Positions 3,774 through 55,176 of a stretch of 64,000 nucleotides of DNA are shown here, piece by piece. Within the stretch, counting starts at the first letter, position 1; every line of letters starts with the position of its first letter. The DNA is from a virus. Made by a program: the position numbers and the translations under genes. The stretch is taken from positions 1 to 64,000 of IMG/VR virus record IMGVR_UViG_3300046513_000221, one strand, 5' to 3'. The notes under the pieces are model-generated. The model saw only the letters and a list, made by a program, of their open reading frames with translations. It did no database searches and was not told where the DNA came from.

Positions 3774-4485
3774 TTTTCTGTGTTCCCAAATGTGAGTGAT
3801 TACAAAAAATAAGAGAGATGGCCCGATGCCGAAGCACCGAGCCTCTCAACTGCTTCCCTTTTCTGGTGGAGTGGGTCGCTATCTTCTTCTCGTCTGTTGC
3901 TACGTTGGATTTTGAGGTACAGCTGTGTCGTGTGTACTGCCGATACTGCCTTTTCGACCGTGTCCAGTCTACGTTTGGGTTCCACAGGCCACCATTTCGC
4001 CTGAATCGTTAAGCACCGCCTCGTGGCGGCTCTCTGGGTGATGTGATGAGCGCGTTTCAGCCCCATCCGGTACTCGCCCGGTACGTTACTGTGCTACGAG
4101 TCATAGGGAGGAAACCATTTGTCCGTGTCCCTACGAAGTTGATCCCTCAGTCCCCGACGGTCTGAAGAATTTTGATGCAAGAAGTGAGGTTGAGGTGGGT
4201 AGCTTAAAGGCTTCTTCTCCGCTCGTGTGAAGGGGTGGAGAGAAAGGACGCCTCCCTCCTACCCGGAGAGTGGATCCCAATTAGGTGCCTCAGCGAATCG
4301 ATAAGCTGACCCACCGAGGCGAGAACGGTTCTCGAACTAGGTTCGATCCCCATTGGACCGGATTAACGGTAACCCTTTCGGGCTGCTTGAGAACGGGGGT
4401 TCCGTGGAATTCCCCGTAGTTGTTAGATGAACCTTTCAGTCCATCATCGATATAATATATCAACAAGTGACCTGCAGATACGGTC

Positions 4486-5085
4486 CTACCGGTGGGAGAG
4501 GATGAGCACGATCGAGGAGTTGTCCTGCAGCTGAGCCCAGAAGGTGTGGTCGCGACCACGGCCCGAGTCGCCCTCGCGGTAGCCGAAGCAGTGCAAACGC
4601 TCGCCGCTCTTCGTGACGAAGCCCTGCAGCATGTCTGCCAGCTCCGAGTCCTTGTCGCCCTGCTCGATCTTACCGGCGTACAGGAAGTCGCGGTCAGAGA
4701 CGTCGTCCGGAGCCTCGTTGTACTCGCGCATGAAGACGTACGACTTGAAGCCCTGATTCAGCAGGTTCTCGTCCGGATGCTGCTCCGCGAAGTGCTGCTG
4801 GAGGAACGCCTTGAACTTGTCGTCCTGAGACGCCTCCGGTTCCTTGAAGGCCGTCGAGATGACGACCTCAACGTCCAGACCCAGAAGGTCGTTGGCCTTT
4901 CCCGAGTTCGTCGGCGGACGCATCGAGCCGTGCTTGCCGATGTAGTGGCGCAGCTTCGGGTCGGTACCCGTGTCCATCGAGACGGTCGCACCGGCGTTCT
5001 CCAGAGCGTTCTTGATGGACAGACCTGCCTGGAACAGGCACTCGTCACCCGCCCTGGACTTCACTTCAAACAAAATCGCTTTCAT
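4486..5085 (-). CDS. hypothetical protein (about 199 aa)
   Basis: Second ATG (MKAILFEVK...) is preceded by GGGAGTGGG, so preferred over the listed start at 5097. Confidence 0.5.
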   Translation of the reverse strand: MKAILFEVKSRAGDECLFQAGLSIKNALENAGATVSMDTGTDPKLRHYIGKHGSMRPPTNSGKANDLLGLDVEVVISTAFKEPEASQDDKFKAFLQQHFAEQHPDENLLNQGFKSYVFMREYNEAPDDVSDRDFLYAGKIEQGDKDSELADMLQGFVTKSGERLHCFGYREGDSGRGRDHTFWAQLQDNSSIVLILSHR

Positions 5086-5115
5086 ACCCACTCCCATAAG
5101 AAAACCTACCTTGAT

Positions 5116-5457
5116 TTAACGCCTCCCACGGGCGTAACGGTACCGGCTGTACTGCCGGTCATCGTCACCCGCCTTGGAGACTGCCTTTTCCTGCTTCGGC
5201 CTGAGCGCGTCACGCGCCGCAGCCTGTGCCAGCCTCTCCTCCGTCATGGCCTCGGAGACGAGGCGCACTAGGTCGGAGTTCACTTCCTCGTACTGGTCGA
5301 TGAAACCCTGTACGTCAACCGTGTAGTTGCCAGCCGGTCGCCGGACGATCGTTATCGTCAGGTGCGGTCGGCTGGTCTTGAGCTTCTCTATGGCGTACTC
5401 GTAGTACTTGACGTAGCCAGCGAGGAACGGCTCGTAGTATGCGTCGTTGCTGCTCAT
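5116..5457 (-). CDS. hypothetical protein with basic C-terminus (113 aa)
   Basis: ATG start verified; C-terminal RYRYARGRR. Confidence 0.55.
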   Translation of the reverse strand: MSSNDAYYEPFLAGYVKYYEYAIEKLKTSRPHLTITIVRRPAGNYTVDVQGFIDQYEEVNSDLVRLVSEAMTEERLAQAAARDALRPKQEKAVSKAGDDDRQYSRYRYARGRR

Positions 5458-5463
5458 ACCGTC

Positions 5464-6075
5464 TTAGAAGATGAGGTTCAATCCGACGAGCGAACCCACA
5501 ACCAGCAGCACGGCGGCGCAGACCCAGTGCCAGCCGGTCATGGTGTCGTCGGTGGAGAACTTGGTCACCAGCTTGCGGTTGTACAAGCCCCAGAACATCG
5601 CACGGTTCTCGTACTCGGCGCTATCGTACTTCTTACGCAGCAGGAACCACATCGCCAGCGAGTAGGAGAACAGCAGTACGAACGTGCCGAAGAAGACCTT
5701 CAGCAGCGACGCACCGACGATCTTGTAGACGATGATGCCCATAGTGACCTTACCCAGAGGGGTCTGGACGAAGTCGTTAGCCGCCATGCCGATCTCCTTC
5801 GCTGCGGAGACGGCTGCGCGCCCCATGTTGCCGCCCAGATCGCCCCACGCCTCGGCCTCGGTGCGGATGGTCTTCGAGACGTTGGCCGGAGACTTCTCTT
5901 CCTTCTCCAGAGCGGCCACGTTGGCGATCAGAGTCGCCTTCTGCTCCGCCGTCAGCTTGCTCACGTCCAGCGACGAGATGCTGCTCGCGCTGGTCTGGGC
6001 GAACGCCATAGGGCAGAAGAGGATAGCCATGATAGCTATCAGGAGGTACACTGGTTGCATCAGTTTGTCGATCAT
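5464..6075 (-). CDS. membrane protein with N-terminal signal/TM segment and C-terminal TM helices (203 aa)
   Basis: N-terminus LLIAIMAILFCPMAFAQTSA is signal-peptide-like; three further hydrophobic segments. Confidence 0.6.
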   Translation of the reverse strand: MIDKLMQPVYLLIAIMAILFCPMAFAQTSASSISSLDVSKLTAEQKATLIANVAALEKEEKSPANVSKTIRTEAEAWGDLGGNMGRAAVSAAKEIGMAANDFVQTPLGKVTMGIIVYKIVGASLLKVFFGTFVLLFSYSLAMWFLLRKKYDSAEYENRAMFWGLYNRKLVTKFSTDDTMTGWHWVCAAVLLVVGSLVGLNLIF

Positions 6076-6076
6076 T

Positions 6077-6415
6077 TCATTTCTTTCTGATTTCGGTTGC
6101 GTTGCTGTGCCGTCTCACCAGCGCCGTGAAGCGCTTGAGACGAGCTCCTTTGTCCTTCGTACCGAAGACCCGATCCACCAGCTTCTGAACCTCGCCGATT
6201 TCCTTCGAGTCGTGCTCGTGGAAGAGGTCATACTCCTCCTCGGTCACGGTGACCTTCCGTACTTCCATGAAGTGAGTCGCGTCAGCGGTCTTCACCCACA
6301 TGAGATAAATCCCATCGCTCCTCTTGAAGAAGGCGATCTGTTGGGGCGAGGCCTCGACCATCCGGACGAACCGGGTGGTGGGCCAAGCCTCGTACTGCTC
6401 CGGTAGCGCGCTCAT
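6077..6415 (-). CDS. hypothetical protein (112 aa)
   Basis: ATG start; stop 1 nt from the next gene. Confidence 0.55.
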   Translation of the reverse strand: MSALPEQYEAWPTTRFVRMVEASPQQIAFFKRSDGIYLMWVKTADATHFMEVRKVTVTEEEYDLFHEHDSKEIGEVQKLVDRVFGTKDKGARLKRFTALVRRHSNATEIRKK

Positions 6416-6792
6416 ACCTCGTACATACCCGGAGGCATGTATGCGCTACGGTACTCTTTCTCCACCACGCTATGGTACCGGCTGATAGCCACGAGGTTGT
6501 CGACGATCTTGACGACATCGCTGGTCAAGTCGGCGTAGCTGCGGATGTCGGTGGCCGGGTTCAGGCCGAGGCGGTCAGCCGTCTCGTGGTCAACCTCCAT
6601 CGCGTCCTCGCGGAAGAAGACGACACCGCCCGGAACAGCCATCCAGACAGCGTAGAACTTCGAGTTGCGGCGGTAGAACTCCGCGACGAACGAGGACTTG
6701 TGTACCTTCAGTGCCGCCTCCAGATCGATAGCGGTTCCCGGAGGGTGGACCATCAGCGCGCCGTGATACGGCTTGGGTGGTGTCTTGCTCAT
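6412..6792 (-). CDS. hypothetical protein (126 aa)
   Basis: Real start is the internal ATG at 6790-6792, forming an ATGA overlap with the stop of 6789..7790. The listed N-terminal extension to 7041 is P/R/G-rich out-of-frame sequence inside the upstream gene. Confidence 0.5.
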   Translation of the reverse strand: MSKTPPKPYHGALMVHPPGTAIDLEAALKVHKSSFVAEFYRRNSKFYAVWMAVPGGVVFFREDAMEVDHETADRLGLNPATDIRSYADLTSDVVKIVDNLVAISRYHSVVEKEYRSAYMPPGMYEV

Positions 6793-7790
6793 GCGTACAC
6801 CATCGCGTCGTGGTGGAACTTGCGGGACAGCTGGTGGCGCTCGGAGTCGGTACCGCGCACCCGCTGGAAGACCCGGTGGGCGCAGTGGCGTGCCTCCTCC
6901 ATCGTCTGCGAGTTGCTGAGGTGGTCGGTGAAGAAAGCGATCTCCGAAGGCTTGAGTTCCTCCTTGACAGGGCAGAACACGTAGACCATGCCGTCGTGCT
7001 TCAGCCACTTGAGGAGCCGGGTGTTGCCGATCAGATCCCACTCTGCGATCAGGGGCGACTTCAGGGCTTGCAGCATCACCTCACCGTGAGAGAGCTTCAT
7101 GCGGGTGAAGTCCTCCTCCACTGCGGCCATGTGCTTGAAGCGGTTCACCCAGTTGCTCAGAGCCTTGTAGCCCTCGGTGACGCCGCGCTTGTGGTCGGCG
7201 TAGCTCTGCTCGGTGACCTCGTTGATGCGGTTCAGCATCTGAGGCGAGAGCATCGCGGAGGGGTTGCTGAAGAAGTAGACCTTGCCCTCGAACTTGACCC
7301 AGCGGACGGCGCGGTTGTTTCCGCGAGCGTTGTCGCCGGTGTGCATGATGTCGCCGGTCCCGGATGGGGTGGTCTCCACCTCCGGCTTCGCACTGTCCTT
7401 GTACGGTGGGTAGGCCACCTTCGTGTGGTGCAGGACGCGGATCTCCTCGCCCACACGCTCGCCATCGGAGCGACGGTGCAGACGACAGCCCTCGAACAGC
7501 GTCTCGCCGAGGGTGCTGTACATCTCGTGACTCAACTGCGCGGGAGAGTGGTGCGAGGTCTGCTTGACCGGCTCCAGTTCCGCGCCGACCGGACTCATGA
7601 CGTAGAGCTCCGGGTAGTTCACTGCCAATTCCACCTCGCGGCGTACCTCGGACAGTCGTTGTTCGCCTACGCTGTTAACGATCTCCTCGACGCGGCATGT
7701 GTTGGCGAGGAGATCGTAGTGCAGGAAGGCTCGGCCTACCATCTCCCAGTCGTTCTCGGGAAGACGGAGTATGCCATTTGCTTGGATCAT
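6789..7790 (-). CDS. tandem paralogue family member 1 (333 aa)
   Basis: Shares ELAVNYPELY / W-E-x-I/V-G / MYxxL motifs with the three genes immediately downstream on the minus strand; TTTGGGAGTACC RBS. Confidence 0.65.
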   Translation of the reverse strand: MIQANGILRLPENDWEMVGRAFLHYDLLANTCRVEEIVNSVGEQRLSEVRREVELAVNYPELYVMSPVGAELEPVKQTSHHSPAQLSHEMYSTLGETLFEGCRLHRRSDGERVGEEIRVLHHTKVAYPPYKDSAKPEVETTPSGTGDIMHTGDNARGNNRAVRWVKFEGKVYFFSNPSAMLSPQMLNRINEVTEQSYADHKRGVTEGYKALSNWVNRFKHMAAVEEDFTRMKLSHGEVMLQALKSPLIAEWDLIGNTRLLKWLKHDGMVYVFCPVKEELKPSEIAFFTDHLSNSQTMEEARHCAHRVFQRVRGTDSERHQLSRKFHHDAMVYA

Positions 7791-33290: not shown

Positions 33291-34094
33291 TTATTTGATG
33301 TCTTTGAGGGAGTTCAACAGCTCCCACATGGCGTTGCGTTCGTGGGCCGGGATGCCGCTGGAGCCTCCCAAGACCGCCTGTTCGTACTTGCGCAGCAGAG
33401 CCAGCATCAGCGGTGCGGCGTTCACCAGCGCCTCGATGCGGGTGTTCTGCTCCTTGCTGTTGGCCGGGTTGGACTCGTCGCCACCGGAGTACAGGACGTT
33501 GTCGCCGTCCTCGTCCTTGACGAACATGAACTGGAACTCGCAGTCCAGCAGCGGCCACTCGAAGTCGCCGTCAAATACGCAGCGCTTCTTGTTGACGACC
33601 TTGGCCGGAGCCAGTTCGTAGTCCGATTCGATCTTCAGTTCGAACGGCAGCTTGTTGTTGTATCCGGACTCGATCTCGTCCTGTAGGGTGTTGGTCTCTT
33701 CATCGACGCGTACCCAGTGATAGACGCGACCGGCGTCGTCGTCCTCGACGTTCACGATGTACGCGAGGTAGCTGTCTTTCGGAACGACGGAATTACCGAA
33801 GGACGAGTTGTACTCGTTCACGGTGACGAAGGTACCCGGCATCATCTGGACCACCGGAGCCGGGTTCGGATCCACCCAATCGCGATCCTCGCGCTCGATC
33901 CACTCCAGACCGGCCACACCGGCATAGACCTGCTGGTCGTTACCGGCGATATCGACGGTCACGAAGCCGCTGCTTGCGGCACTGCGAGGCTTCTGGAAGG
34001 ACACGATCTTCACCTTGCCTTCGTGGTTGTGCAGCGATACCTCGTCGCCTACCTTCGCCTCGCGGCTGTGGTCGTTCTCATACACGATGCGCAT
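33291..34094 (-). CDS. hypothetical protein (267 aa)
   Basis: GAGGAGA RBS + ATG. Confidence 0.55.
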   Translation of the reverse strand: MRIVYENDHSREAKVGDEVSLHNHEGKVKIVSFQKPRSAASSGFVTVDIAGNDQQVYAGVAGLEWIEREDRDWVDPNPAPVVQMMPGTFVTVNEYNSSFGNSVVPKDSYLAYIVNVEDDDAGRVYHWVRVDEETNTLQDEIESGYNNKLPFELKIESDYELAPAKVVNKKRCVFDGDFEWPLLDCEFQFMFVKDEDGDNVLYSGGDESNPANSKEQNTRIEALVNAAPLMLALLRKYEQAVLGGSSGIPAHERNAMWELLNSLKDIK

Positions 34095-34578
34095 TTGCGG
34101 TCTCCTCGTTGATTTTCTTCATTTGTGCTTCGGTCAGCGCGAGACGCGCCATAGGGATCATCCATGTCAGATCTGGAACGATCTTGTGGGAGGCGCAGTT
34201 CAGCGTCCAATAGCCGAGGTCGTTGCAGTCCAGTTCGATGCAGTAGAGATCCTCGTCTGCCGGATTGTCAACCATCTCCAGAGCGGTGATGTTCGGCAGT
34301 TCGATGGCGTAGCACCAGATGATGTAGTCCGGCTCTTCGACGATGTGGAAGCGAACCCACTGTTCCTTCACCGTATCGACGCCGGTCTCCTCGCGGAACT
34401 CACGCATCATCGCACCGACAGGACTCTCGTGAGGCTCTTTCTTGCCGCCCTGACCGTTGTACTTGTCGATCAAGTTCATCGGACCGCGATTCTTCAGCTG
34501 CAACAGCACCTGATCCAGATCACCGGCCTCGAACGGGAAACCCAACACGTATTGTTGCTTCTTGGAATTTTCAAACAT
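34078..34578 (-). CDS. Nudix hydrolase (166 aa)
   Basis: Perfect Nudix box GGKKEPHESPVGAMMREFREETGV (Gx5Ex7REUxEExGU); GAGGAG RBS. Confidence 0.75.
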   Translation of the reverse strand: MFENSKKQQYVLGFPFEAGDLDQVLLQLKNRGPMNLIDKYNGQGGKKEPHESPVGAMMREFREETGVDTVKEQWVRFHIVEEPDYIIWCYAIELPNITALEMVDNPADEDLYCIELDCNDLGYWTLNCASHKIVPDLTWMIPMARLALTEAQMKKINEETANAHRV

Positions 34579-34579
34579 C

Positions 34580-34945
34580 TCAGCACTCCTCTTCTTCTAT
34601 GTGACGACGAGTCTTGCGCTTGCGGCGCTCGTCGATGATTTTCATTACTTTACGGATGATATTGTCGCCGTGACACTCCTTCGGAGCGCACCAGCACATC
34701 AAGGCGATATCTTCACCTGCTTCTACCCTGTCGGCCAAGGAGTTCAATTCCTTCCTGATGGCCCAGTCCTTCTCGTACAGCTCGTCCAGTCGGACGGCAT
34801 GTTCGCGGATGCACTTGCCCCGCTCGTGTTCGAACACGAGCCTCACCGGATTCTCCAGAAGGCTCGGTCTACTGATCTTCACCACAGTCTCGTGCTTGAG
34901 AGGCTTGGTGCCTCCCACGCGAGCGCTAACGACTCGGATTCCCAT
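34580..34945 (-). CDS. small protein with MCWCAPKECHGD motif (DUF4326-like by recollection) and basic C-terminus (121 aa)
   Basis: C-x-C ... C-H-G-D cluster near the C-terminus; KRKTRRH tail. Confidence 0.5.
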   Translation of the reverse strand: MGIRVVSARVGGTKPLKHETVVKISRPSLLENPVRLVFEHERGKCIREHAVRLDELYEKDWAIRKELNSLADRVEAGEDIALMCWCAPKECHGDNIIRKVMKIIDERRKRKTRRHIEEEEC

Positions 34946-35427: not shown

Positions 35428-36873
35428 TTAGTGTACGTTCTTCGGATCTTCGAAGAACATGTCCTTCACGTTCGTGCAGAACGGCACGATGGTACCGCTC
35501 AAGCCCGGATCACCGGACGAGGACGCATTCAGCGACAGGTTGCCGAGGAACGACTCGTGGATGCTGCGGTACTTGACCAGAACGTTACCACCGTTCGCAC
35601 CGAGGGACTGAGCGCCACGCGCCGACCACTTCAGTGCCACGTTGAACAGGTTCAGCGTGTTGGTGATGTTGGAGTAGCGCAGCAGCTCGTTGGTGATCAG
35701 GCGCTTGACGAGGAACATCGCGCCGATGTTGCTGAACACCGTCTCCAGACGCTTCATGTCGATGTTGCGGCTGTTCAGGATGCGGACGGTGATCTCGGAC
35801 CACTTGATCAGCAGCGGGAAGATCAGGTACTCGTACAGGCGCAGACGGCGCGTGTAGATGTTGAGGCTGTCCAGCTGGTGCAGCTCTTCGTAGTTCCATG
35901 CCATGTAGCGCACGACATCGAAGGTGCTCTGCTTACCGTCATCCGGCAGCTCGCGCAGGTTCTTCTTGGTACGCTCGTCGAGGATGCGCTCCAGCGACAT
36001 GATGGCCTTGTCTGCCTTCTCCAGCTTGGAGGTCGGCGAGGTCAGGATCTTACGACGCCAGAAGTCGCCGGACGCCAGACTAGTGGACTTCTTCACGTTC
36101 TCCAGCACATGATGCAGGGAAATCACGAGGTTGCGGAAGTTGGCATCGGACTGCAGACGCTCCTTGTTGACCACCATCGTCATGGTCTTGCTCGGATGGA
36201 AGTACTCGAAGTCGCTGTCCACCTCGACCTCTTGATCATTGAAGACGAACACGTCCTCATCCAGCTTCATCAGACGCATGGTCTCCTCGAAGCCGTACTT
36301 GATGAAGAAGTAGATGAAGAAGTTCTTGAATGCGTTGATGTTGTTCGAGCGGGTCTTGAAGAAGTCCAGCAGGAACACCTTACCGTTGTAGTCGGTGCCG
36401 CCGTTCGACTGGATGGTCGTCTGCTTGTGGCGAACGCCCAACGGCATCAGCAGCGTCTTCAGGAAGATACCATTGCGCACGTTGTAGAAGTTCTTGTCTG
36501 CAACCTGCAGGATCGCGTAGTAGCGGTTCCCGTTCAGGATGAAGAAGTAGTCGTCGACCAGCTTCGGGATGAACAGGTGCAGAGCGCGCTCCTTCTTCTC
36601 ACCCTCCCACTCGATCATGAACCGGGCCTCGATCAGGTCCAGACGCGATTCCTCGATCGAGATGGTCTGCTTCGAGATGTACTTGTGGCACTCCTCCTCG
36701 TTGATGCGCTTCATGTCGAGGAACTTGATGCCGGGGATCGAGTTCAGCGTCGAGAACAGGTCGCGGAAGTAGCTGTCGATGTCCTCGCGTTGACGGATGT
36801 AGATCAGGTCTTCATTGAACTTCTCCGGGTTGTCTGCCTGGAACTTCTTGTAGAATTGGGTTTGGATGTCCAT
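35428..36873 (-). CDS. candidate multisubunit RNA polymerase beta-subunit N-terminal fragment (481 aa)
   Basis: Real start MDIQTQFYKK with AAGGAG RBS. C-terminal LGANGG ... RSIHESFLGNLSLNASSSGDPGLSGTIVP resembles the beta fork-loop region (LGPGGL ... [24 protein letters not shown]). Lies a few genes from the beta'-like gene. The product call is tentative. Confidence 0.6.
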   Translation of the reverse strand: MDIQTQFYKKFQADNPEKFNEDLIYIRQREDIDSYFRDLFSTLNSIPGIKFLDMKRINEEECHKYISKQTISIEESRLDLIEARFMIEWEGEKKERALHLFIPKLVDDYFFILNGNRYYAILQVADKNFYNVRNGIFLKTLLMPLGVRHKQTTIQSNGGTDYNGKVFLLDFFKTRSNNINAFKNFFIYFFIKYGFEETMRLMKLDEDVFVFNDQEVEVDSDFEYFHPSKTMTMVVNKERLQSDANFRNLVISLHHVLENVKKSTSLASGDFWRRKILTSPTSKLEKADKAIMSLERILDERTKKNLRELPDDGKQSTFDVVRYMAWNYEELHQLDSLNIYTRRLRLYEYLIFPLLIKWSEITVRILNSRNIDMKRLETVFSNIGAMFLVKRLITNELLRYSNITNTLNLFNVALKWSARGAQSLGANGGNVLVKYRSIHESFLGNLSLNASSSGDPGLSGTIVPFCTNVKDMFFEDPKNVH

Positions 36874-36881
36874 GCTGCTCC

Positions 36882-37139
36882 TTAGCGAACGTTCTTGTAG
36901 GCTTCCAGAACTGCCGCCTTGACGACCTCCGGTGCTGCGGTGAAGTAGTCGGCAACCATCGCCACGGTCCACTTGGAGCCGTTGCGCGGTGCCGAGCCGG
37001 TCATGTAGAATGCCAGCTTGTCGGAGATGACGCGCCAATGACGTTCAGTGATCTCTTCCATCTTGAGGCCGAGAAACTCAGCGACTTCCTCTGCGTGGTA
37101 GATGTAGCTGTGGGTTACCAGCCCGGATACGATAGCCAT
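36882..37139 (-). CDS. hypothetical protein (85 aa)
   Basis: ATG verified. Confidence 0.45.
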   Translation of the reverse strand: MAIVSGLVTHSYIYHAEEVAEFLGLKMEEITERHWRVISDKLAFYMTGSAPRNGSKWTVAMVADYFTAAPEVVKAAVLEAYKNVR

Positions 37140-37636
37140 TATGATTCTTCCTCGGTTATAACTCTTTTGTGCTTATTGACTAGCACGAAGTCTGGATCAT
37201 TCCTGATCCTCCACAGCTCGGTCGCCTGACAGGCATGACCGCTCTGGCCGAACTTGTCGGATAATCCCGATGCGTCACGTATGACCGCGTACAGCTTCGG
37301 GTTTTCCCTTATGTATTCATCCCAGAGCCGAGAGTACAGAACTCGTACCTCGTCCGGGTTTAGCGGCACTTTGCCTTTGGCGAACTTCCAGCCCATGCCA
37401 CTGATGTTGCCCTCGAAGACCTTCGATGCTTGATAGATCTCCTCGATACTTCTGTTGCCGCGAGAGCGGATCCTCGCATAGAAGGCTGAGAGCCTGCAGT
37501 CCCCTTGAGAACTGCATTCGAGAAACGGCGACTCTCCGTGGCTTATCACACCGATTTTCCCATACTCGTAATCAACTGTTCGTCTGGCATCCGGAATCGA
37601 TTGCCAAAACGTGATTGGTATGCATAGGTCTTCCAA
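37139..37636 (-). CDS. hypothetical protein, possibly NADAR/YbiA-like (165 aa, start uncertain)
   Basis: Weak similarity of PFLECSS ... SIEEIYQASKVFEG to the NADAR core (SNF ... EHyfQAxKF). An alternative GTG start at 37549 would remove the overlap with 37546..37800. Confidence 0.4.
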   Translation of the reverse strand: MEDLCIPITFWQSIPDARRTVDYEYGKIGVISHGESPFLECSSQGDCRLSAFYARIRSRGNRSIEEIYQASKVFEGNISGMGWKFAKGKVPLNPDEVRVLYSRLWDEYIRENPKLYAVIRDASGLSDKFGQSGHACQATELWRIRNDPDFVLVNKHKRVITEEES

Positions 37637-37800
37637 AGTTCACGGTTTTCCAGCATGTCTTTGAACGGGAAATGCTCAGAATTATCCTGCAGAAGGAACA
37701 CATACTGGATGTCGCCGGTCACAAGATACATATTCCGGGCAAGCAGGGATGTCTTCGTGCTCAGCATCCCTGCAGCGGTGTTCAGATCCAGAATACTCAT
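37546..37800 (-). CDS. doubtful small ORF (84 aa)
   Basis: ATGA overlap with the upstream gene, but it overlaps the 5' end of 37139..37636 by about 90 nt. Confidence 0.25.
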   Translation of the reverse strand: MSILDLNTAAGMLSTKTSLLARNMYLVTGDIQYVFLLQDNSEHFPFKDMLENRELWKTYAYQSRFGNRFRMPDEQLITSMGKSV

Positions 37801-38123
37801 GCCATACCTCGCTTCCACTTAGGGATCTTGGGCTTCTTGGCCTTCTGGAACACGGCCCCGGTAGGGTTGGCTGCACCCTGCCAGCGCGCCTTGGTGGCTT
37901 GCTTGACGGACACCTCCATCTTACCGCCCTCCTTGTAGAGCCAACGCCAGCCATCCCAGAACAGCCGCTCGATGTTCTTGGCCAGATTCGAAGCCTCCAC
38001 ATTGTACCAACCCGGTTCGGTCGGCGATACCACGGTCGCGTCGAACCAGTCGGAATCAGGCGGGAGACCACATGCAGCGGCGACGGTCTTAGGCATTGGT
38101 TTACGCTTGGGAATTACTGCCAT
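37797..38123 (-). CDS. hypothetical protein (108 aa)
   Basis: Trp-rich; basic C-terminus. Confidence 0.5.
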   Translation of the reverse strand: MAVIPKRKPMPKTVAAACGLPPDSDWFDATVVSPTEPGWYNVEASNLAKNIERLFWDGWRWLYKEGGKMEVSVKQATKARWQGAANPTGAVFQKAKKPKIPKWKRGMA

Positions 38124-38580
38124 CTTCCTCTCCGAGGTTCACGTTCACGGACTCCCACTTCTCGATCAGGTCGCACACGACCATGAAGTTGGGGTGCATC
38201 AGGTGGTCCTCGTCGGAGCCGACGACATCGGCCAGCCAGTCGCCGAGGTAGTGAATCCGGTCGAAATCCTGCTCGTTCTCGATGACATAGTCCTTGGTGA
38301 GGGCCATGATATCGTCCGGCAGACTGCGCCCGAATTTCTGCTTGTAGTGGACCGAGTTCGGCTCACGGTTGCCGATGTTCACCGTCAGGATGTCGGCCAG
38401 CAGATGGATCGGGAAGATGCGCGAGAATACGCGACGCACATCGTTCAGGTTGGAGTGCTGCATGCACTCGCCGTCCGGCATCACCGGATCCTTGAACATG
38501 TAGCAGTGCAGTTCAGGATTGTCGTTCAACTTCTTGTGAGTGCAGCTTTCGCACTTCAGCATGTCTTGAGTTTCGGCCAA
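38101..38580 (-). CDS. Cys-rich (putative zinc-binding) protein (159 aa)
   Basis: TTG start 6 nt after a perfect AAGGAG RBS; CESCTHK ... HCYMF ... GECMQH. Confidence 0.5.
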   Translation of the reverse strand: MAETQDMLKCESCTHKKLNDNPELHCYMFKDPVMPDGECMQHSNLNDVRRVFSRIFPIHLLADILTVNIGNREPNSVHYKQKFGRSLPDDIMALTKDYVIENEQDFDRIHYLGDWLADVVGSDEDHLMHPNFMVVCDLIEKWESVNVNLGEEDGSNSQA

Positions 38581-38595
38581 GATCTACTCCTTGAG

Positions 38596-38634
38596 TTAAA
38601 ATAATCGGAGGATGACCTTTTCGGGTCATCCTCC
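38596..38634 (-). terminator. terminator hairpin GGAGGATGACC-N6-GGTCATCCTCC + T-rich tail
   Basis: 11-bp perfect stem downstream of the beta'-like gene, followed by GATTATTTTAA on the minus strand. Confidence 0.5.
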
Positions 38635-38708
38635 TCTCAGTTCGGCATCTATTATAACGCCATTTTCGGTTTTACGCTATGCAACTTAACAACAGTCGAT
38701 ATCACTGC

Positions 38709-38718
38709 TATTATATAT
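38709..38718 (-). promoter_or_regulatory. AT-rich promoter-like motif (ATATATAATA on minus strand)
   Basis: Intergenic between the beta' gene stop and 38580. Confidence 0.3.
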
Positions 38719-38739: not shown

Positions 38740-40308
38740 TTACTCCTTGGTGAGCATGTACAGTGCCAGACCACCCTCACGATGGATGCCCCGGATGAAG
38801 TTACCCTGAGTATCCATATAGTTCATCGGCGAGAACATGATCTTTTCCGCCTCGATGTTGGCCTCTGCGGAGAACAGACCTGCCACACGCATCGTGTCGC
38901 CGTCGTAGTCACCACCGAGACCCTTCATGTATGCGAAGTTCGGTACGTAGGTGTCGATCCACTGGATCTTGTCTTCGAGGATCGTGTTCTTACCATCGGT
39001 CGGGAAGAACGGGTAGTCCTTGAAGTTCTTGTTACCGGTTCCGCCCTCGCTCACCAGACCGGACACGTCCACGGTTTTCTCCGTGGTCAGGATCTTCACC
39101 CGGCAGGTGATGACGGACTCGGGACCAGTCACCGGGAAGCGGGTGGCGATTACGTGCTTGTCGCGGCACACGTCGATCGCGGCGTCGTACAGGAAGTCGG
39201 TCAGTGTGTAGTGGCGATCCGGCAGACCCTTGATACCCTCGATGTTTTTCATGATCGGAGTGCGATCACCGACGCCGTTCAGACGAAAGGCCTGAGTACG
39301 GATCCGCTTAGTCTTGTCCTTGATGTAGCCGTTCACGATCTTCTGGATGTTCGCGGACGAGATGGTCTCGTACACGGTGTCCTGTAGGTCGTAGCGTTCG
39401 TCACCCTCCAGTACGATCGATGCCGAGTGCTCGTACTCATGGAAGAAGTCTTCGATCCACTTGATGATGAACGGATAGAACAGGTTCAGTGCCAGATGGA
39501 GCGGTACCCCGAAGTAGTTGTATGGGATCTGCTGCGTCTCGGGGGTGTTGCTCTTGATCTGCGAGCAGGAGAGCACGCCGATGGTCGAGTAGTCGATGGA
39601 CTTACCCATGATGGCCTGACGGATCACGCCCTTCTTACCGGCGATCTTCTGAGTCAGTTCCTTATGGATCTCGACCAGCAGGTTCTGCACGGAGGATTGG
39701 GTGATGTAGCTGTTCTCGAAGATGATGGCCTCCGAGGTGGCGGCATTCAGGAGCTTGATGTACAGGGCGTTGACACCCTCCACAGTGATCTTCTTGGAGC
39801 CGGACTGACTGGAGAAGTTCACATCGCGGTAGTAGGCAGGGATGACCAGCCACTTGTCGAGGAAGATCTCATCGAACTTGAGCATGTTGAGCAGCTCGTC
39901 CTTCTTCTCGCGGCTAGCGTTGATAGTACCTTCCTTCACCCACTTGATCTTCTTCCAGTTCTTGACGAAGAAGTCGATGCCGCACTCACCCTGCTCCGGG
40001 TCGTCGGACACAACGAGGTTGCCGAACTGGTCGAGCCGGACGTACTTGTCACCAGCCAGAACGAGCGGCAGCGCACGAAACATCTGGAAGATGGTGATGT
40101 ACACCATCGGGTGAAAGAACTTACGACGGAGATCGATAAAGCCGAAGTTGTTCTTACGCTCTTCCGAGCCGAACTTACCGAAGATCTTTGTCGAGAACAG
40201 ACCGTCCTCGCTTGGGAGTCCATCCGATCCGAGATAGAAGCGGTTGTTTACTTGCTCGCAGCCGTTCACACGGATGAACTCGTTCATGTTGAATGCGTCT
40301 AATTGCAT
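38740..40308 (-). CDS. multisubunit RNA polymerase beta'-like subunit, N-terminal fragment (522 aa)
   Basis: KGLGGDYDGDTMRVAG is the universal NADFDGD Mg-binding motif, sitting near the C-terminus as in split beta' N-fragments; RFPVTGPESV region; AAGGGAAAG RBS. Confidence 0.7.
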   Translation of the reverse strand: MQLDAFNMNEFIRVNGCEQVNNRFYLGSDGLPSEDGLFSTKIFGKFGSEERKNNFGFIDLRRKFFHPMVYITIFQMFRALPLVLAGDKYVRLDQFGNLVVSDDPEQGECGIDFFVKNWKKIKWVKEGTINASREKKDELLNMLKFDEIFLDKWLVIPAYYRDVNFSSQSGSKKITVEGVNALYIKLLNAATSEAIIFENSYITQSSVQNLLVEIHKELTQKIAGKKGVIRQAIMGKSIDYSTIGVLSCSQIKSNTPETQQIPYNYFGVPLHLALNLFYPFIIKWIEDFFHEYEHSASIVLEGDERYDLQDTVYETISSANIQKIVNGYIKDKTKRIRTQAFRLNGVGDRTPIMKNIEGIKGLPDRHYTLTDFLYDAAIDVCRDKHVIATRFPVTGPESVITCRVKILTTEKTVDVSGLVSEGGTGNKNFKDYPFFPTDGKNTILEDKIQWIDTYVPNFAYMKGLGGDYDGDTMRVAGLFSAEANIEAEKIMFSPMNYMDTQGNFIRGIHREGGLALYMLTKE

Positions 40309-40447
40309 GATGCTTTCCCTTGATTGGTTGGGTTATCTAAAGTACTGTTACTCTTTAAACTAAAGGAGTTTTGTCGGTAATTACCTGAAAGCACCAGCTG
40401 TGCGCAAACAGTTGGTTAGATCCCACTAACCAACCGAGTCAATCCAC

Positions 40448-41422: not shown

Positions 41423-41467
41423 AAAAAAAGACACCCATAGCCCCGGAAAGGGCTATGGGTTCTTTTT
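41421..41467. terminator. bidirectional terminator A9-ACCCATAGCCC-N6-GGGCTATGGGT-T5 between convergent genes
   Basis: 11-bp perfect stem flanked by an A-run and a T-run. Confidence 0.7.
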
Positions 41468-42230
41468 AATGATCCCAGGCCAAGTACTGGCCGTCATCGA
41501 GAACGTGCTCGTTCTCGGGATCGTACAGGCGATGGGTGTTGGGGTTCACGCGCAGCTCGGTGTCATACCAGAAGATGCCTACCTGATGCTCGCGCTTCAG
41601 ATCCAACTCCATAGGAATGTCCACGTTGTGGCGCAGACGCGGCAGGAAGAACTCCTTGCCGTGCGAGTCGGTGTTCTCGATGACATCGACGATGTTGTAC
41701 GTTGCGTCATCGGCGAACGAGGTGTAAATGACATCATGCTCCTTCATGGCCTCGGATTTCTTCTGCTTGCCCTCGGTCAGGATGAAGCGCACCTTGACAC
41801 CGGCGCTCTTGAACGGTTCCATGATGCGGTCGAGCATCCGGATCTTGCTCGCCGTGACCGGGTAGGACACATCCACGCAGCTCGTGATGACGGTGATGCT
41901 GTTCAGCACGTCATGCTGGAGCATCTGGCGCAGCAGATGGTAGTACGCCGACGTCTGCAGGTTGTCGTAGAAATTCGGATCGTAGAAAAATTTGTTCAGC
42001 ATCAGCTTGCCCAGTTCAGGATACTTCTTCTCGAAGTCCTCTTCAAAGTGGGTAAGGATTGGGTACTGGAGGCGGTTAGCCGGGTTCGAGTTGATTGCCG
42101 AACTGAACTGCGTCTCGGACAATGCACCACGAAGCTTCGTGTCGTTAAGGATAACCTTCACCCATGGAGTGCTGCAGTCAACCAGCACATCGTCCATATC
42201 GGTGGCTATGTCGAATTTCTTATTCGTCAT
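41466..42230 (-). CDS. HAD-superfamily phosphatase, 5'(3')-deoxyribonucleotidase-like (254 aa)
   Basis: Motif I DIATDMDDVLVD (DxDxV) and later SFADDATYN (DD). Confidence 0.5.
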   Translation of the reverse strand: MTNKKFDIATDMDDVLVDCSTPWVKVILNDTKLRGALSETQFSSAINSNPANRLQYPILTHFEEDFEKKYPELGKLMLNKFFYDPNFYDNLQTSAYYHLLRQMLQHDVLNSITVITSCVDVSYPVTASKIRMLDRIMEPFKSAGVKVRFILTEGKQKKSEAMKEHDVIYTSFADDATYNIVDVIENTDSHGKEFFLPRLRHNVDIPMELDLKREHQVGIFWYDTELRVNPNTHRLYDPENEHVLDDGQYLAWDH

Positions 42231-45849: not shown

Positions 45850-47535
45850 CTATGCCAGCAGCGCCTCCAGATCGACGATGACGTCGTTGACGTCAGGCAG
45901 ACCGAGGAGTTCCTTGCCGATTCGGATGATATCGTTCTCGGCGATGAGGCCGGGGATGATATCGTCGAGTTCCGGACGCTTGTCGCACATGATCTTGCCG
46001 ATCATGGTGTCCGCATCGATGTTACCTGCCAGAATGATCGATGGATACATGGACGATAAGTCCTCGTCCACAATATTCTCGAAGATGCGATTGGAGCGCT
46101 TGCCATCCTTGCTGATGACGATGCCGACGGCGTCCATCATCTCAGGCAGAGCCACGAATGCACCCTTGAACTTCTTCTTCTCTTCCTCTTCCTTCAGACG
46201 GTTGTGGTTGTTGGACAGGAGGAAACCCTCCTTCTCCAGAACCATCGCCGCGAAGTTACGGATCGAGGTGGTCTTGGTCATGACCTTGTTGAAGCGGGTC
46301 GCGGTCATCAGGCCCATGTTGTACAGCAGGTCGATGTCGTTGTTCTGCTCTTCGAGCTGATACAGACGGAACGAGTCATACATCGAGTACTTGAGGAAGC
46401 TCTCGTAGTTGATGTACATCGCGTCCGTGATCTCGCCCTCGTACTCATACTTACCTTCGATCCCCTCGTCGATCAGGATCGCATCCAGAGCGTACGATTC
46501 GCGCTTGCCCATCGTCGCCCGGATCTTGGCGAACTGCTCCTGCATCTCGACGAACTGCGAGTAACCTGCAACCTCCAGCTTGGTGTTCCGCTTGGTGAAG
46601 TCGGTTGCGAAGGAATCGTTCTCGATCCATGTGGACTTGTACGGCAGCTCCTTTGGACACATCACCTCTTCAGGCTTTAGCTTCAGTCGGAGCATACGGT
46701 TCTTCATGGTTACCAAGTCGAACCCGGCGTTCCAAGCACCCATGAAGTCGGGTTTGTCACGCTTCACGATCTTGAAGAAGTCCTTCAGCAGCTCCGCCTC
46801 ATCGTCGTAGATGTGTACCTCGATCGCACGCACCTTGGCGTAATCGATCTTGGAGTTTGGATCCTTCTCGTTCATCTCGTCGATGACCTGAGAGATCCAC
46901 TCATCGCCGTATTCTGCGAATGCTTCAAGGAAGTCCATCTGAGATTGGTTGTTCTCGTTCTTCAGGATGAACGAGTGGATGGTCATCGTCGGCTGGTGGA
47001 TGTACGAGATCATCGACACCGGACATGGAGCCAGCTCTGGTTCAGGAAACTCCCTGTACTCCGACACATCGACCTCAATATCGTAGAACGCCTTGGTGAT
47101 CGGCAGGACTGCGATCTGGTGACGGTTGCGGTCGAGCCACTCACGCGTCTTGTAGTCTGCCAGATCCATGTCCGTCAGGTGCAGGTTGTTGTCCTTGTGG
47201 AGGTTACGGAGTTCCTTCCACTTACCGTTGTTCTTACAAGCCTTGTAGAAGTCCATCTGGTCGGAGGCCTTAGCCATCTCATACTGCAGATTGTCGAACT
47301 TCACGGTTATCGGCTCGACCTTGTCGAACTCGATGTAATTCGCTGCCTTCTTCAGCCTGAACTCGTCCTTGGTAATGTAGAACGTGTAGGACGGATCCTC
47401 CTCGATCTCGAATTGCTTCTTGATCGTACCATCCGGTTGAAGTACGCTCTCCACATAGATGATCTTGGAGTGCTGGCGATTGTTGTCGTCACGATCGCGA
47501 ACGTGCAAGACGTTCGATAGCTGTTTTCCGCTCAT
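45850..47535 (-). CDS. family-B DNA polymerase, N-terminal part (3'-5' exonuclease domain + polymerase motif A, 561 aa)
   Basis: Exo I YDIEVD; Exo II WNAGFDLVTM; Exo III YSMYDSFRLYQL; motif A DLSSMYPSIILAGN. The protein ends about 70 aa after motif A. Confidence 0.75.
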   Translation of the reverse strand: MSGKQLSNVLHVRDRDDNNRQHSKIIYVESVLQPDGTIKKQFEIEEDPSYTFYITKDEFRLKKAANYIEFDKVEPITVKFDNLQYEMAKASDQMDFYKACKNNGKWKELRNLHKDNNLHLTDMDLADYKTREWLDRNRHQIAVLPITKAFYDIEVDVSEYREFPEPELAPCPVSMISYIHQPTMTIHSFILKNENNQSQMDFLEAFAEYGDEWISQVIDEMNEKDPNSKIDYAKVRAIEVHIYDDEAELLKDFFKIVKRDKPDFMGAWNAGFDLVTMKNRMLRLKLKPEEVMCPKELPYKSTWIENDSFATDFTKRNTKLEVAGYSQFVEMQEQFAKIRATMGKRESYALDAILIDEGIEGKYEYEGEITDAMYINYESFLKYSMYDSFRLYQLEEQNNDIDLLYNMGLMTATRFNKVMTKTTSIRNFAAMVLEKEGFLLSNNHNRLKEEEEKKKFKGAFVALPEMMDAVGIVISKDGKRSNRIFENIVDEDLSSMYPSIILAGNIDADTMIGKIMCDKRPELDDIIPGLIAENDIIRIGKELLGLPDVNDVIVDLEALLA

Positions 47536-51664: not shown

Positions 51665-52555
51665 ATGACCATGAACCACCCAAGCAATTTTACTCAAGAG
51701 CTGCACGCATATGCCGAACAGGCAGGTTGCGGTCTCACCACGCTGAGTTCCGATGTGATCGATGGCTACGTCATCGACATCGCCGACCCGGCCAGCCGCG
51801 TGGCTATCAACCTCGTACCCCTGAACGGGATCGAGAGTCCAGACAACAGGTTGCTCGAAATGTCCATGAAGGCACATGAGAACAACTTCACACTCTATCA
51901 CGTCTTCGAATCGGACTGGATGCATCGTCGCTCAGTCCTGATGAAGAAGATCGACTCCCTTCTCGGGATTGGCAGCGAAGAGAAAACGATCTACCGCTCG
52001 AAAAAGTGTGAGATCCGGCGCATCGATGAGAAGACCTTCCGGGAATTCTTCCGCACCAATTCGGTCGCGGTAACATCGAAAGCCGATAAGTACTTCGGAA
52101 TGTATCCGATCGACAAGCAAGACACAACACTGGTCGCGGCGATCGCCGTTAAGAACCTGAAGAAGGATCCGAACGGCTCCATCATCACGTCCTATGTGAC
52201 CAACCTCGACCACAAGGTCGTTGGTGCTTTTGGCAAGTTCGTGGGATACCTGAAGGGCGGCAAGAACTACTGTCTGTACCACGCGGATCTCCGCTGGTTG
52301 GACCTGCGTTCGACCTTCCTCAACAAGGCTTCCATGAAGTTCGTCAAGGTGTCGGAGCCACTGCGCTTCGCCTACACCCAGAGCATCAAGAAGCTCCACC
52401 TGCTGAACGGGATGACCCGCGAGAGTCTTTCGTCCCGCGTATCCTTGTCGAAGCCGTACGATACACGGCTCTCGATTGAGGATAATCTGGCAGCGAATGA
52501 CTTCAGCTTCATCCGCGATGCTGGCTGTATGATCTTCTCCTCGAAGAAGAACTGA
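51665..52555 (+). CDS. hypothetical protein in its own terminator-flanked unit (296 aa)
   Basis: AGGAGG RBS; terminators on both sides; less biased codon usage than the capsid gene. Confidence 0.55.
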   Translation: MTMNHPSNFTQELHAYAEQAGCGLTTLSSDVIDGYVIDIADPASRVAINLVPLNGIESPDNRLLEMSMKAHENNFTLYHVFESDWMHRRSVLMKKIDSLLGIGSEEKTIYRSKKCEIRRIDEKTFREFFRTNSVAVTSKADKYFGMYPIDKQDTTLVAAIAVKNLKKDPNGSIITSYVTNLDHKVVGAFGKFVGYLKGGKNYCLYHADLRWLDLRSTFLNKASMKFVKVSEPLRFAYTQSIKKLHLLNGMTRESLSSRVSLSKPYDTRLSIEDNLAANDFSFIRDAGCMIFSSKKN

Positions 52556-53211: not shown

Positions 53212-55176
53212 ATGAGCGGAGTCTACCATGACAAATATTTCGAGACGCTGGAACGGCGTCTCAGCCTCGTCTGCGGCGAACTCAGCGACGAGGATCGTGC
53301 AAAGCTCCGGGAGCGCATCTGGGCGATGCGCAAGCCAATCGAACTGACGATCGAAAACAACTACAAAGACACATGGATCGATACCAACTCGGAAGAGATC
53401 CTCAACATCATCTACGACAAGAAGCCGAACATCTCCGGCTATGGCGTACTGTTCAACCACAAGCCGAACATCCCCGGTCGCGTTCTGGACTTCCTGCTGA
53501 AGGAACGTAAGGTCAAGAAGAACAAGATGTTCGACCACCTGAACGACGACGACAAGACCATGTACAACAAGCTGGACGTGGAGCAGAAGGTGCTCAAGGT
53601 TCTGGCGAATGCGTACTACGGTGCGTTCGGTCAGCGTTCGTTCCACTTCTTCAATCCGTTCCTTGGTCCATCAGTGACCTACACGGGTCAGCACATCATT
53701 CTGAGCGCGATTCTCGGCTTCGAATCGTTCATGTCGGACAACTTCGCGTTCTTCACGTTCGACCAGCTGCTGAAGTACGTGGACAACATCACTCAGGAGT
53801 TCGACGCCGAGCTGACGGCTCTGGACGAGAAGGTCACCGTCGAGCAGGTGTACGCTCGTCTGTCCGGCAAGTGCAACTTCGAGCTGACCGAGGAGCAGCA
53901 GATGGTGCTGGGCGGCGTCCTCGATGACATGCCTTACACCCAGCTGGAGCGTCTGTTCCTCAAGAACAACCTGTTCTTCCTGCTGCGTAACTCCACGGAG
54001 GTGCGTGACATCTTCGGTGAGTGCTTCAGTTCGGAATTCCTCGATCCAGACCATCCTCCGAAGGAGATCGCTGAGAACGTCGAGGCACTGAACGAGTACT
54101 TCAGCTACTTCGTCTCCTATCCGTACCAGTGGGACGACAAGTACGAGACTGCGCAGAATATCAAACGCAAAACCGTGCTGATCTCCGACACGGACTCCAC
54201 ATTCCTCAATATGGATCCTGCCGTCAAGTGGTACGAGGAAACGTTTGGTGTCAAGCTTGATAAAGTGGGCAAGATCAACGTCTGCAACATCATGGTATAC
54301 AACGTTACGAAGTTCATCGAGAAGGTGTTCTACCAGCTTACGACGAACCTGAACGTGAAGGAGAACATGCGTTCGAAGATCAATATGAAATCCGAGTTCA
54401 ACTTCTCCCGGATCATCTTGACTAAGAACAAGAAGCAGTATGCAGGTCAGATCGTTCTACAAGAAGGCAAGCTGCTCGGTAAGCCCAAGTTCGCGGTCGT
54501 CGGCCTGTCAATCAAGAAGGTCGGTACTCCTAAGATCGCTCGCAAGCGGTTCAATGACATTCTCGAAAAGGACATGTTGTTGGCCGACGTCATCGATCCG
54601 CTGGTACCGTTCATGAAGTTCATGGAGTTCGAGCGCGACATCAACAACTCGCTCCGGGCCGGTGAGTCGAGCTTCCTGAAACCGGCGCGCTTCACCGCTG
54701 AACGCGCCTACAAGAAGCCATTCACTCAGCAGACCGTTCGCGGCGTACGCCTCTGGAATGCTATCTTCCCCAACAGGAAGATCCCTAACTTCACCTCCGT
54801 CAATATGCTGAAGCTGCGTAAGTACTCGCTGCCGAAGTTCGAAGTGGACAAGGATGGCGAACCGGTAGAGAACGTCAACAAGGAAGTCGACATTCTGGAA
54901 TTCATGGAGGAGATTGCTAAGCTGAATCTCGCCGAGAATATTCTGGAGGGCATCGCCGAGTTCATCCAGACCCCGGAGATCGGCAACTACGGCATCGACG
55001 TGATCGCCATTCCGAAGGACATCGACCAGTTCCCGGAGGAGCTGGTTCCTCTGGCCGACATCAGTTCCATCATCAACGACAACATGAAGAATGGTAACAT
55101 CCTTCTGGAGTCCATTGGGTTCAAGGTAATCAAGAGCCTGAAGTACGATACGGTGAGTAACATCATCGAGATCTAA
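53212..55176 (+). CDS. family-B DNA polymerase, C-terminal part (motifs B and C, thumb; 654 aa)
   Basis: Motif B KVLANAYYGAFG (KxxxNSxYG); motif C LISDTDSTF (DTDS); GAAAGGAAGG RBS. Confidence 0.75.
   Translation: MSGVYHDKYFETLERRLSLVCGELSDEDRAKLRERIWAMRKPIELTIENNYKDTWIDTNSEEILNIIYDKKPNISGYGVLFNHKPNIPGRVLDFLLKERKVKKNKMFDHLNDDDKTMYNKLDVEQKVLKVLANAYYGAFGQRSFHFFNPFLGPSVTYTGQHIILSAILGFESFMSDNFAFFTFDQLLKYVDNITQEFDAELTALDEKVTVEQVYARLSGKCNFELTEEQQMVLGGVLDDMPYTQLERLFLKNNLFFLLRNSTEVRDIFGECFSSEFLDPDHPPKEIAENVEALNEYFSYFVSYPYQWDDKYETAQNIKRKTVLISDTDSTFLNMDPAVKWYEETFGVKLDKVGKINVCNIMVYNVTKFIEKVFYQLTTNLNVKENMRSKINMKSEFNFSRIILTKNKKQYAGQIVLQEGKLLGKPKFAVVGLSIKKVGTPKIARKRFNDILEKDMLLADVIDPLVPFMKFMEFERDINNSLRAGESSFLKPARFTAERAYKKPFTQQTVRGVRLWNAIFPNRKIPNFTSVNMLKLRKYSLPKFEVDKDGEPVENVNKEVDILEFMEEIAKLNLAENILEGIAEFIQTPEIGNYGIDVIAIPKDIDQFPEELVPLADISSIINDNMKNGNILLESIGFKVIKSLKYDTVSNIIEI

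Follow-up and report, generated by a model that had tools for sequence, protein, structure and literature searches.

A 64,000-nucleotide stretch of viral DNA, positions 1 to 64,000 of IMG/VR virus record IMGVR_UViG_3300046513_000221 and referred to here as the window, carries on its minus strand, at 35428-36873, a gene for one half of a split RNA polymerase (RNAP) subunit. Sequence and fold comparisons identify its product, termed betaN, as a full-length orthologue of gp105 of Bacillus phage AR9, which makes up the N-terminal half of beta in the non-virion RNAP (nvRNAP) of that phage. It is predicted to be an early gene of a phage related to AR9 and to Yersinia phage phiR1-37, and in all likelihood the beta-prime fragment encoded beside it belongs to a second enzyme, the virion-packaged RNAP (vRNAP). 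The gene and the two parts of it that matter most here are as follows.

35428-36873, minus strand: predicted nvRNAP betaN gene, orthologue of AR9 gp105 and phiR1-37 g194; 481 aa (open reading frame, ribosome binding site, homology, structural model)
35479-35622, minus strand: conserved C-terminal segment ARGAQSLG...KYRSIHESFLGNLSLNASSSGDPGLSGTIVPF, codons 418-465 (family consensus; profile alignment to 8I23_C residues 496-560)
35728-35784, minus strand: putative pocket residues R364, R375 and N382 (codons 364-382), corresponding to AR9 gp105 R363, K375 and N382 (alignment to 7S00_c)

The open reading frame (ORF) is real, as the preliminary description of this DNA had it. Its ATG start at 36873 lies just 3' of an AAGGAG ribosome binding site at 36883-36878, which overlaps the TAA stop codon of the preceding 85-aa gene, and GC content at the three codon positions (0.50/0.29/0.88) is the same as in other core genes of the window. 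A 536-aa version with a TTG start, returned by the ORF finder, merely overruns the preceding 85-aa gene. An antisense ORF of 484 aa at 35431-36885 (plus strand; GC 0.88/0.30/0.49) is a mirror artefact of the high GC content at third codon positions (GC3) of betaN and is not a gene.

The assignment to nvRNAP beta begins with sequence similarity. Among solved structures, the sole significant match of betaN is chain c of 7S00, 7S01, 7UM0 and 7UM1, named 'DNA-directed RNA polymerase beta subunit'; residues 8-471 align with 5-470 of the 496 residues of 7S00 chain c (phmmer E 4e-83). A tblastn search of the whole AR9 genome returns gp105 (E 7e-84), which the AR9 record labels 'non-virion RNAP subunit; beta subunit, N-terminus', and no vRNAP gene, with no similarity at E 1e-4 to gp189, the N-terminal part of vRNAP beta. 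The same type of search in deposited phages finds matches in only 21 records, which comprise phiR1-37, AR9/PBS1, the B. pumilus phage BpSp, the Staphylococcus S6 group and Listeria phage LPJP1. Identity is 42.5% to phiR1-37 g194, with 99% of the protein covered, and 37.8% to AR9/PBS1 gp105; several of the Staphylococcus phage records label the homologue 'non-viral RNA polymerase beta subunit'. In the PHROGs collection, betaN falls over its full length into phrog_2943, 'polymerase' (E 3e-59). A large protein collection holds 144 homologues, of which the 120 listed are without a precomputed Pfam domain and, fragments excepted, about 475-520 aa long; those metagenomic members of the family that bear a name at all are called 'hypothetical protein'. 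betaN adds a new, moderately divergent member, at 38-43% identity to characterised relatives, to a family whose structure has been solved and whose biochemistry is known.

Structural comparison leads to the same protein. An alignment of 43 homologues, mostly 475-520 aa in length, was used for conservation counts and for an AlphaFold2 model, which has a mean predicted local distance difference test score (pLDDT) of 86 and a predicted template modelling score (pTM) of 0.84. Foldseek superposes this model on AR9 7S00_c with a template modelling (TM) score of 0.85, and on the nvRNAP chains 9RJS_E and 8QUE_E of Pseudomonas phage phiKZ, of 488-493 residues, with TM 0.66-0.67 normalised on either chain. 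Dozens of bacterial beta chains are matched with probability 1.00 and E 2e-10 to 1e-8, at a TM score of about 0.5 when normalised on the query over some 500 columns. The family profile built from the alignment recovers 7S00_c at E 3e-192. It had been proposed from the letters of the DNA alone that the gene encodes an N-terminal fragment of RNAP beta, and the match to 7S00_c together with the Foldseek matches to bacterial beta (E ~1e-10) bears this out.

Compared with bacterial RpoB, betaN is homologous in fold to the N-terminal ~45% and has an alignable fork loop 2 / rifampicin (Rif)-cluster motif. Unlike that part of RpoB, it is a separate chain, ending near the equivalent of residue 575 of the 1250-residue 8I23_C, and it is without the catalytic half that holds the double-psi beta-barrel (DPBB) and the hybrid-binding region; AR9 makes that half as a protein of its own, gp089. 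The likeness to gp105 extends to length class (496 vs 481 aa), fold and the C-terminal fork-loop motif, at an identity of only ~38%.

By profile alignment, codons 418-465 appear homologous to the fork loop 2 / Rif-cluster region of bacterial beta. Within this segment ARGAQSLGANGG begins at residue 418, KYRSIHESFLGN at 434 and SSSGDPGLSGTIVPF at 451. The C-terminal consensus of the 43 sequences is S.RGPQSLG....KYRG.HPSY.G.I.L...SAGDPG.SGT..PF, in which R436, H439, G444, D455, P456, G457 and P464 are invariant or nearly so. Positions 310-469 of the family profile align with residues 396-560 of 8I23_C, bringing the motif onto the LSALGPGGL... stretch. The preliminary description had recognised a mirror of the beta fork loop in this terminus, and had named the absence of an RpoB-like region and a lack of conservation of the segment as the outcomes that would speak against it; the profile matches 8I23_C and the segment is kept throughout the family. 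The resemblance stands, but the register proposed for it does not: LGANGG had been equated with GPGGL, and it is GAQSL of RGAQSLG that aligns with GPGGL instead.

The position of the split was likewise anticipated correctly as that of phiKZ-type beta subunits. The betaN chain stops about 15 residues past the C-terminal motif, as the AR9 and phiKZ nvRNAP chains do, and phiKZ nvRNAP chain E (9RJS_E, 8QUE_E, 7OGP_E) has the same fold and length, implying the same split position. At the sequence level, in contrast, phiKZ chain E is ~15% identical to betaN, and tblastn of deposited phages detects no similarity. Going by length and fold, chain E is presumably gp123, which holds the beta2 lobe that grips downstream DNA (PMC7618050). 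Beta is divided at one site in vRNAP, at another in nvRNAP, and at neither of these in archaea (PMC7598289). The ends of betaN are of the nvRNAP type. In E. coli numbering, with Rif clusters I and II taken to lie at ~525-572, the protein would presumably end near beta residue 590, and on our reading of the alignment its rifampicin-pocket positions are presumably substituted.

The second polymerase gene lies 1.87 kb upstream of betaN in the same orientation, with five small ORFs between the two.

38740-40308, minus strand: predicted vRNAP beta-prime N-terminal half, orthologue of AR9 gp145 and phiR1-37 g178; 522 aa, metal-binding DYDGD motif at 467-471, uninterrupted

Among solved structures, its product matches many bacterial beta-prime chains and two plastid/cyanobacterial gamma chains, and no AR9 nvRNAP chain. 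Within the whole AR9 genome (tblastn) it finds gp145, 'virion RNAP subunit, beta-prime N-terminus', at 37% identity and E 6e-73; the match to the nvRNAP subunit gp270 is weak (23% identity, E 3e-5). It is also 45% identical to phiR1-37 g178, annotated as 'phage structural protein', and matches Staphylococcus phage genes labelled 'viral RNA polymerase beta-prime subunit'. These similarities indicate that betaN and its neighbour belong to two different polymerases and are not partners. Since the two genes would specify subunits of different enzymes, co-purification of betaN with the beta-prime fragment, which had been put forward as a check, is expected to be negative.

The arrangement of the two genes can be compared with that in relatives, among them phiR1-37 and three contigs termed L011, L012 and L013. 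phiR1-37 g194, annotated 'polymerase', is the closest deposited relative of betaN; it is absent from the list of RNAP subunits in the phiR1-37 transcriptome paper (PMC4848604). As in the window, g194 lies on the same strand as the vRNAP beta-prime gene g178 and downstream of it, but the two are 15 genes (~10 kb) apart, and an HNH-endonuclease insertion breaks g178 at its catalytic motif. In AR9, gp105 follows a uracil-DNA-glycosylase inhibitor gene and is far from gp145, whereas in the window 2 kb lie between betaN and the gp145 orthologue.

In the window and in L012 the vRNAP beta-prime N gene is continuous. In phiR1-37, L013, L011 and AR9 its homologue is broken at residue 470/471, within the catalytic DYDGD. 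The gap holds HNH or homing-endonuclease genes in phiR1-37 and AR9 and a 260-aa gene in L013; in L011 it lies beyond the contig end. The pieces are found at 4001-5419 and 6824-6979 of the compared sequence L004, at 5930-7318 and 8550-8705 of L013 and at 101-256 of L011. The last exon of g178 in phiR1-37 appears to be g181, which is labelled 'hypothetical protein'.

Promoter-like motifs of two kinds surround these genes, and a hairpin stands with them.

38703-38718, minus strand: early (virion-RNAP type) promoter motif ATATATAAT-AGCAGT-G, predicted start G 38703, between the beta-prime stop and the betaN operon
38607-38634, minus strand: terminator-like 11-bp GC-rich hairpin, then GATTATTTTA, 3' of the early promoter and 5' of the operon's first gene
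40338-40349, minus strand: AACAGTACTTTA (AACA-N6-TA), resembling a late promoter of the nvRNAP type; the start codon of vRNAP beta-prime is 30 nt downstream
4460, 16398, 20312, 24397, 30961, 38718, 43928 and 47735, minus strand, and 53148, plus strand: early-promoter cores ATATATWAT-N6-G
40349, 43897, 43130, 53100, 63788 and 37580, minus strand, and 40407, 47718, 49893 and 55748, plus strand: AACA-N6-TA sites 19-78 nt 5' of ten gene starts

On the minus strand, 16 bases past the beta-prime stop codon, the sequence reads ACATATATAATAGCAGTGAT. The pattern ATATAWWAT occurs at 9 promoter sites in the window (11 overlapping 9-mer matches) against 0.23 expected; at 9/9 of these early-promoter sites a G follows after exactly six bases, and the strands follow local gene orientation. 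The AR9 early (vRNAP) promoter consensus is AAATATATATTAT-(6N)-G+1 (PMC5312081). The motif in the window is the core of that consensus and also fits the annotated promoters of phiR1-37, one of which, ATATATAAT-TAAAAT-G, stands 5' of g194 and is likewise followed by a hairpin (L002, 7921-7947). The hairpin in the window may stop late read-through from beta-prime while letting vRNAP pass, or may stabilise a 5' end. A scan for sigma-70 promoters gives fewer matches than in shuffled sequence, and a sigma-70-like match at 38686-38714 (plus strand) is the reverse view of the AT-rich early-promoter motif.

The late consensus of AR9, read by nvRNAP, is AACA-(6N)-TA/G (PMC5312081). In the window, AACA-N6-TA has 18 sites, and 10 of them fall within 100 nt upstream of gene starts in gene orientation, the highest count of 70 patterns tested; the runner-up reaches 8 and most controls 0-5. 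The motif precedes the genes for the major capsid protein, the tail sheath, a gp153-like virion protein and vRNAP beta-prime, and it is also found 5' of the beta-prime genes of L012 and L013. Both classes of motif in the window are AR9-like. The late promoters of phiKZ, TATG, are unlike AACA-N6-TA (PMC5312081), and no late consensus was reported in the phiR1-37 transcriptome study (PMC4848604). At 47.7 kb and 53.1 kb, early cores pair with oppositely oriented AACA-N6-TA motifs, mirroring the divergent AR9 g152/g153 region.

In AR9, gp105 and the sigma-like gp226 form a pocket for the flipped -10 uracil of the template-strand 3'-UUGU-5', where R363 of gp105 stacks on the -10 base and K375 hydrogen-bonds to the same base (PMC9209446). 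The equivalents of R363 and N382 are kept in betaN, and K375 is replaced by R. Among the 43 homologues, R is found at position 364 in 42/43, R or K at 375 in 29/43 and N at 382 in 24/43. Because R364 is conserved and AACA-N6-TA motifs are present, AR9-like recognition of the promoter on the template strand, at the interface of betaN and a sigma-like subunit, is likely. Specificity for U over T depends on V206 of gp226, and a gp226 equivalent is not in the window.

Taken with what is known of AR9, these observations suggest a scheme in which the betaN gene would be read early, in a polycistronic unit, by the virion-packaged RNAP from ATATATAAT-N6-G at 38718-38703. The protein would then assemble, as in AR9, with the C-terminal half of beta (betaC), two beta-prime halves and a sigma-like subunit, the equivalents of gp089, gp270, gp154 and gp226. 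From its homology to gp105, gp123 and bacterial beta, betaN is predicted to carry the beta2 lobe as well as the fork region, to which fork loop 2 and the Rif-cluster segment belong, and by analogy with AR9 and phiKZ it would give the enzyme the lobe holding downstream DNA and the fork region. The assembled nvRNAP would transcribe late genes, vRNAP beta-prime included, from late promoters that appear AR9-like (AACA-N6-TA). The neighbouring genes would come from two polymerases, each transcribing the other's genes.

Between the two RNAP genes, in transcription order, lie the following ORFs.

38101-38580, minus strand: small ORF 1, 159 aa, Cys-rich N-terminus; no homologue found; GC3 0.82
37797-38123, minus strand: small ORF 2, 108 aa; weak match to PHROG 26541 (function unknown)
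37546-37818, minus strand: small ORF 3, 90 aa; no PHROG or Pfam match; weak coding signal, GC3 0.58
37139-37549, minus strand: small ORF 4, NADAR-like, 136 aa from GTG 37549; GC3 0.65; GTGA overlap on the preceding stop
36882-37139, minus strand: small ORF 5, 85 aa; no homologue found

By tblastn, the five small ORFs are without homologues in the whole AR9 genome and in the corresponding intervals of phiR1-37, L012 and L013, where the flanking RNAP genes are 44-62% identical, and small ORFs 1 and 5 have none in any deposited phage. The content of the interval varies as widely as its sequence. L011, whose betaN is 72% identical, has ~220 nt and no gene between the last beta-prime exon and betaN; L012 has 7 genes there, L013 has ~5 and an HNH endonuclease, and phiR1-37 has 15. 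The GC3 of small ORFs 3 and 4 (0.58-0.65) is well under that of core genes (0.8-0.88). Small ORF 4 falls short of the curated cutoff of the Pfam family NADAR-DarT1 (PF22397), to which it aligns at E 2e-5, and matches PHROG 9995 at E 2e-35; with p043 of Rhizobium phage 16-3, outside the phiR1-37/AR9 group, it shares 73% identity, and tblastn finds homologues in 51 deposited phage records, mostly of unrelated Pseudomonas, Rhizobium and Achromobacter phages. It is a mobile cargo gene, perhaps one that counters DarT defence. Its GTG has an AACA-N6-TA motif 20 nt upstream, at 37580-37569.

The suggestion that the five small genes are RNAP accessory factors fails on this evidence: no conserved RNAP-linked family emerged from PHROGs, Pfam, tblastn of four relatives and of deposited phages, or pairwise comparison with AR9 gp140, and the NADAR-like gene is widespread. 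The interval 36882-38580 (minus strand) is a hypervariable cargo island, with 0 to 15 genes among relatives and none shared, and it looks like an early-expressed one. DUF4326 and NUDIX-family genes, at 34580-34945 and 34078-34578 (minus strand), follow just downstream of betaN, past a 162-aa ORF; in L011, too, a DUF4326 gene stands directly after betaN.

Given their common strand and short distance, it is attractive to assume, as the preliminary description did, that betaN and the beta-prime fragment form one polymerase encoded in a local cluster, with the small genes as its accessory factors; the order beta-prime N, small genes, betaN even recurs in L012 and L013 and, more loosely, in phiR1-37. 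This is nevertheless very unlikely. The beta-prime fragment goes with virion gp145 and far less with gp270, it matches no nvRNAP chain of known structure, and an early promoter and a hairpin separate the genes. The small genes, for their part, differ wholly between relatives, two of the five being without a homologue in deposited phages, and both the closeness of the NADAR-like gene to one of phage 16-3 and the atypical GC3 of small genes run against the cluster as well. An alternative that keeps the partnership by moving betaN to the other enzyme, as the N-terminal beta subunit of the virion-packaged RNAP and true partner of its neighbour, is exceedingly unlikely. It would fit a position beside a vRNAP gene, and beta is split in both polymerases of these phages (PMC7598289). 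What decides against it is the match to gp105 where none to gp189 appears, the 'non-viral' label of the Staphylococcus homologues, and phiR1-37 g194, which carries no structural flag while g178 and g203 do. The two enzymes are moreover split at different sites, and in length and ends betaN agrees with nvRNAP chains. That the ORF is a decaying or non-functional beta remnant, a thought invited by its lack of a Pfam Rpb2 domain, has next to no probability in view of a full-length match without truncation, a confident fold, many homologues of the same length, a strong codon-position signature, a canonical ribosome binding site and conserved functional residues.

Several points weigh against the interpretation preferred here, that of betaN as an early-expressed nvRNAP subunit beside a vRNAP gene. 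The Pfam scan of betaN finds no Rpb2 family at E <= 1, and what it does return (LAIKA, DUF7862) is noise below threshold. At the sequence level the link to bacterial beta is marginal, the family profile reaching 8I23_C at E 0.014, and support comes mainly from the fold and the AR9 structure. When the 346 ORFs of 50 aa or more in the 64-kb window were compared by tblastn with the complete AR9 genome, no other nvRNAP subunit, nor any further RNAP subunit, was found, and a PHROG scan of the ten largest ORFs gives only the two known RNAP genes, so that assembly of the enzyme is inferred. On the side of expression, the hairpin lies between the predicted early start and the operon, and read-through must be assumed; AACA-N6-TA is low in information, its enrichment being judged against control patterns only; and phiR1-37 g178 has been reported to be constitutively expressed and not strictly late (PMC4848604).

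The phage from which the window derives can be placed in the phiR1-37/AR9 group because AR9 has matches to its two RNAP genes and to its genes for major capsid, portal, sheath and a split family-B DNA polymerase; on these similarities it is an undescribed phiR1-37/AR9-like jumbo phage. Megablast of the region 34-41 kb gives no match among deposited phages, and the betaN gene is seen on one Logan contig, SRR26076596_129887. No ORF in 1-29000 of the window has a tblastn match in AR9, and its proteins of 621, 470, 727 and 390 aa have no PHROG match either. Scans of the window for Rfam families and tRNAs return nothing. The family-B DNA polymerase is divided into an exonuclease-containing half (AR9 gp132) and a catalytic half (AR9 gp152), 6 kb apart on opposite strands; the capsid gene lies between the halves, adjoined by a gene for a Hef-like homing endonuclease.

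45850-47535, minus strand; 53212-55176, plus strand; 51665-52555, plus strand: split DNA polymerase / Hef-like endonuclease region

A HAD-like gene with a DMDDV motif, at 41466-42230 (minus strand), shows weak pairwise similarity (E 3.5e-4) to the 5'(3')-deoxyribonucleotidase gp151 of AR9. It is situated near vRNAP beta-prime, as gp151 is in AR9, and is conserved in phiR1-37 (g177), L012 and L013. The protein may be a deoxythymidine monophosphate (dTMP) phosphatase of a uracil-DNA pathway, and the gene gives weak support for uracil-containing DNA in this phage. To our knowledge, all characterised members of the AR9/phiR1-37 group have uracil-containing DNA.

The identification of betaN is first of all a result for annotation. 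The family has no Pfam domain and its members are poorly labelled; the link to a solved AR9 subunit fixes its function. It also shows that adjacent beta and beta-prime fragments in such jumbo phages need not be partners, because these phages carry two polymerases; in the window a predicted early/late promoter switch parts the two genes. The window extends the AR9/phiR1-37 group to a GC-rich phage (~55% GC), and its motifs hint that early and late promoters of the AR9 type are common to the group.

A tentative and rather doubtful proposal goes further: that, across the clade, a late beta-prime N gene and an early betaN gene bookend a promoter switch and a cargo island, and that the clade uses late promoters of the AR9 type. 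If so, the island between the bookends would be hypervariable and early-expressed, gathering genes for host takeover or anti-defence, among which the NADAR-like enzyme could reverse DarT-type ADP-ribosylation of DNA. The template strand would then be the one on which AACA-N6-TA is read, perhaps in the form UUGU if the DNA contains uracil, and this motif would supply the late consensus that is missing from the phiR1-37 transcriptome study.

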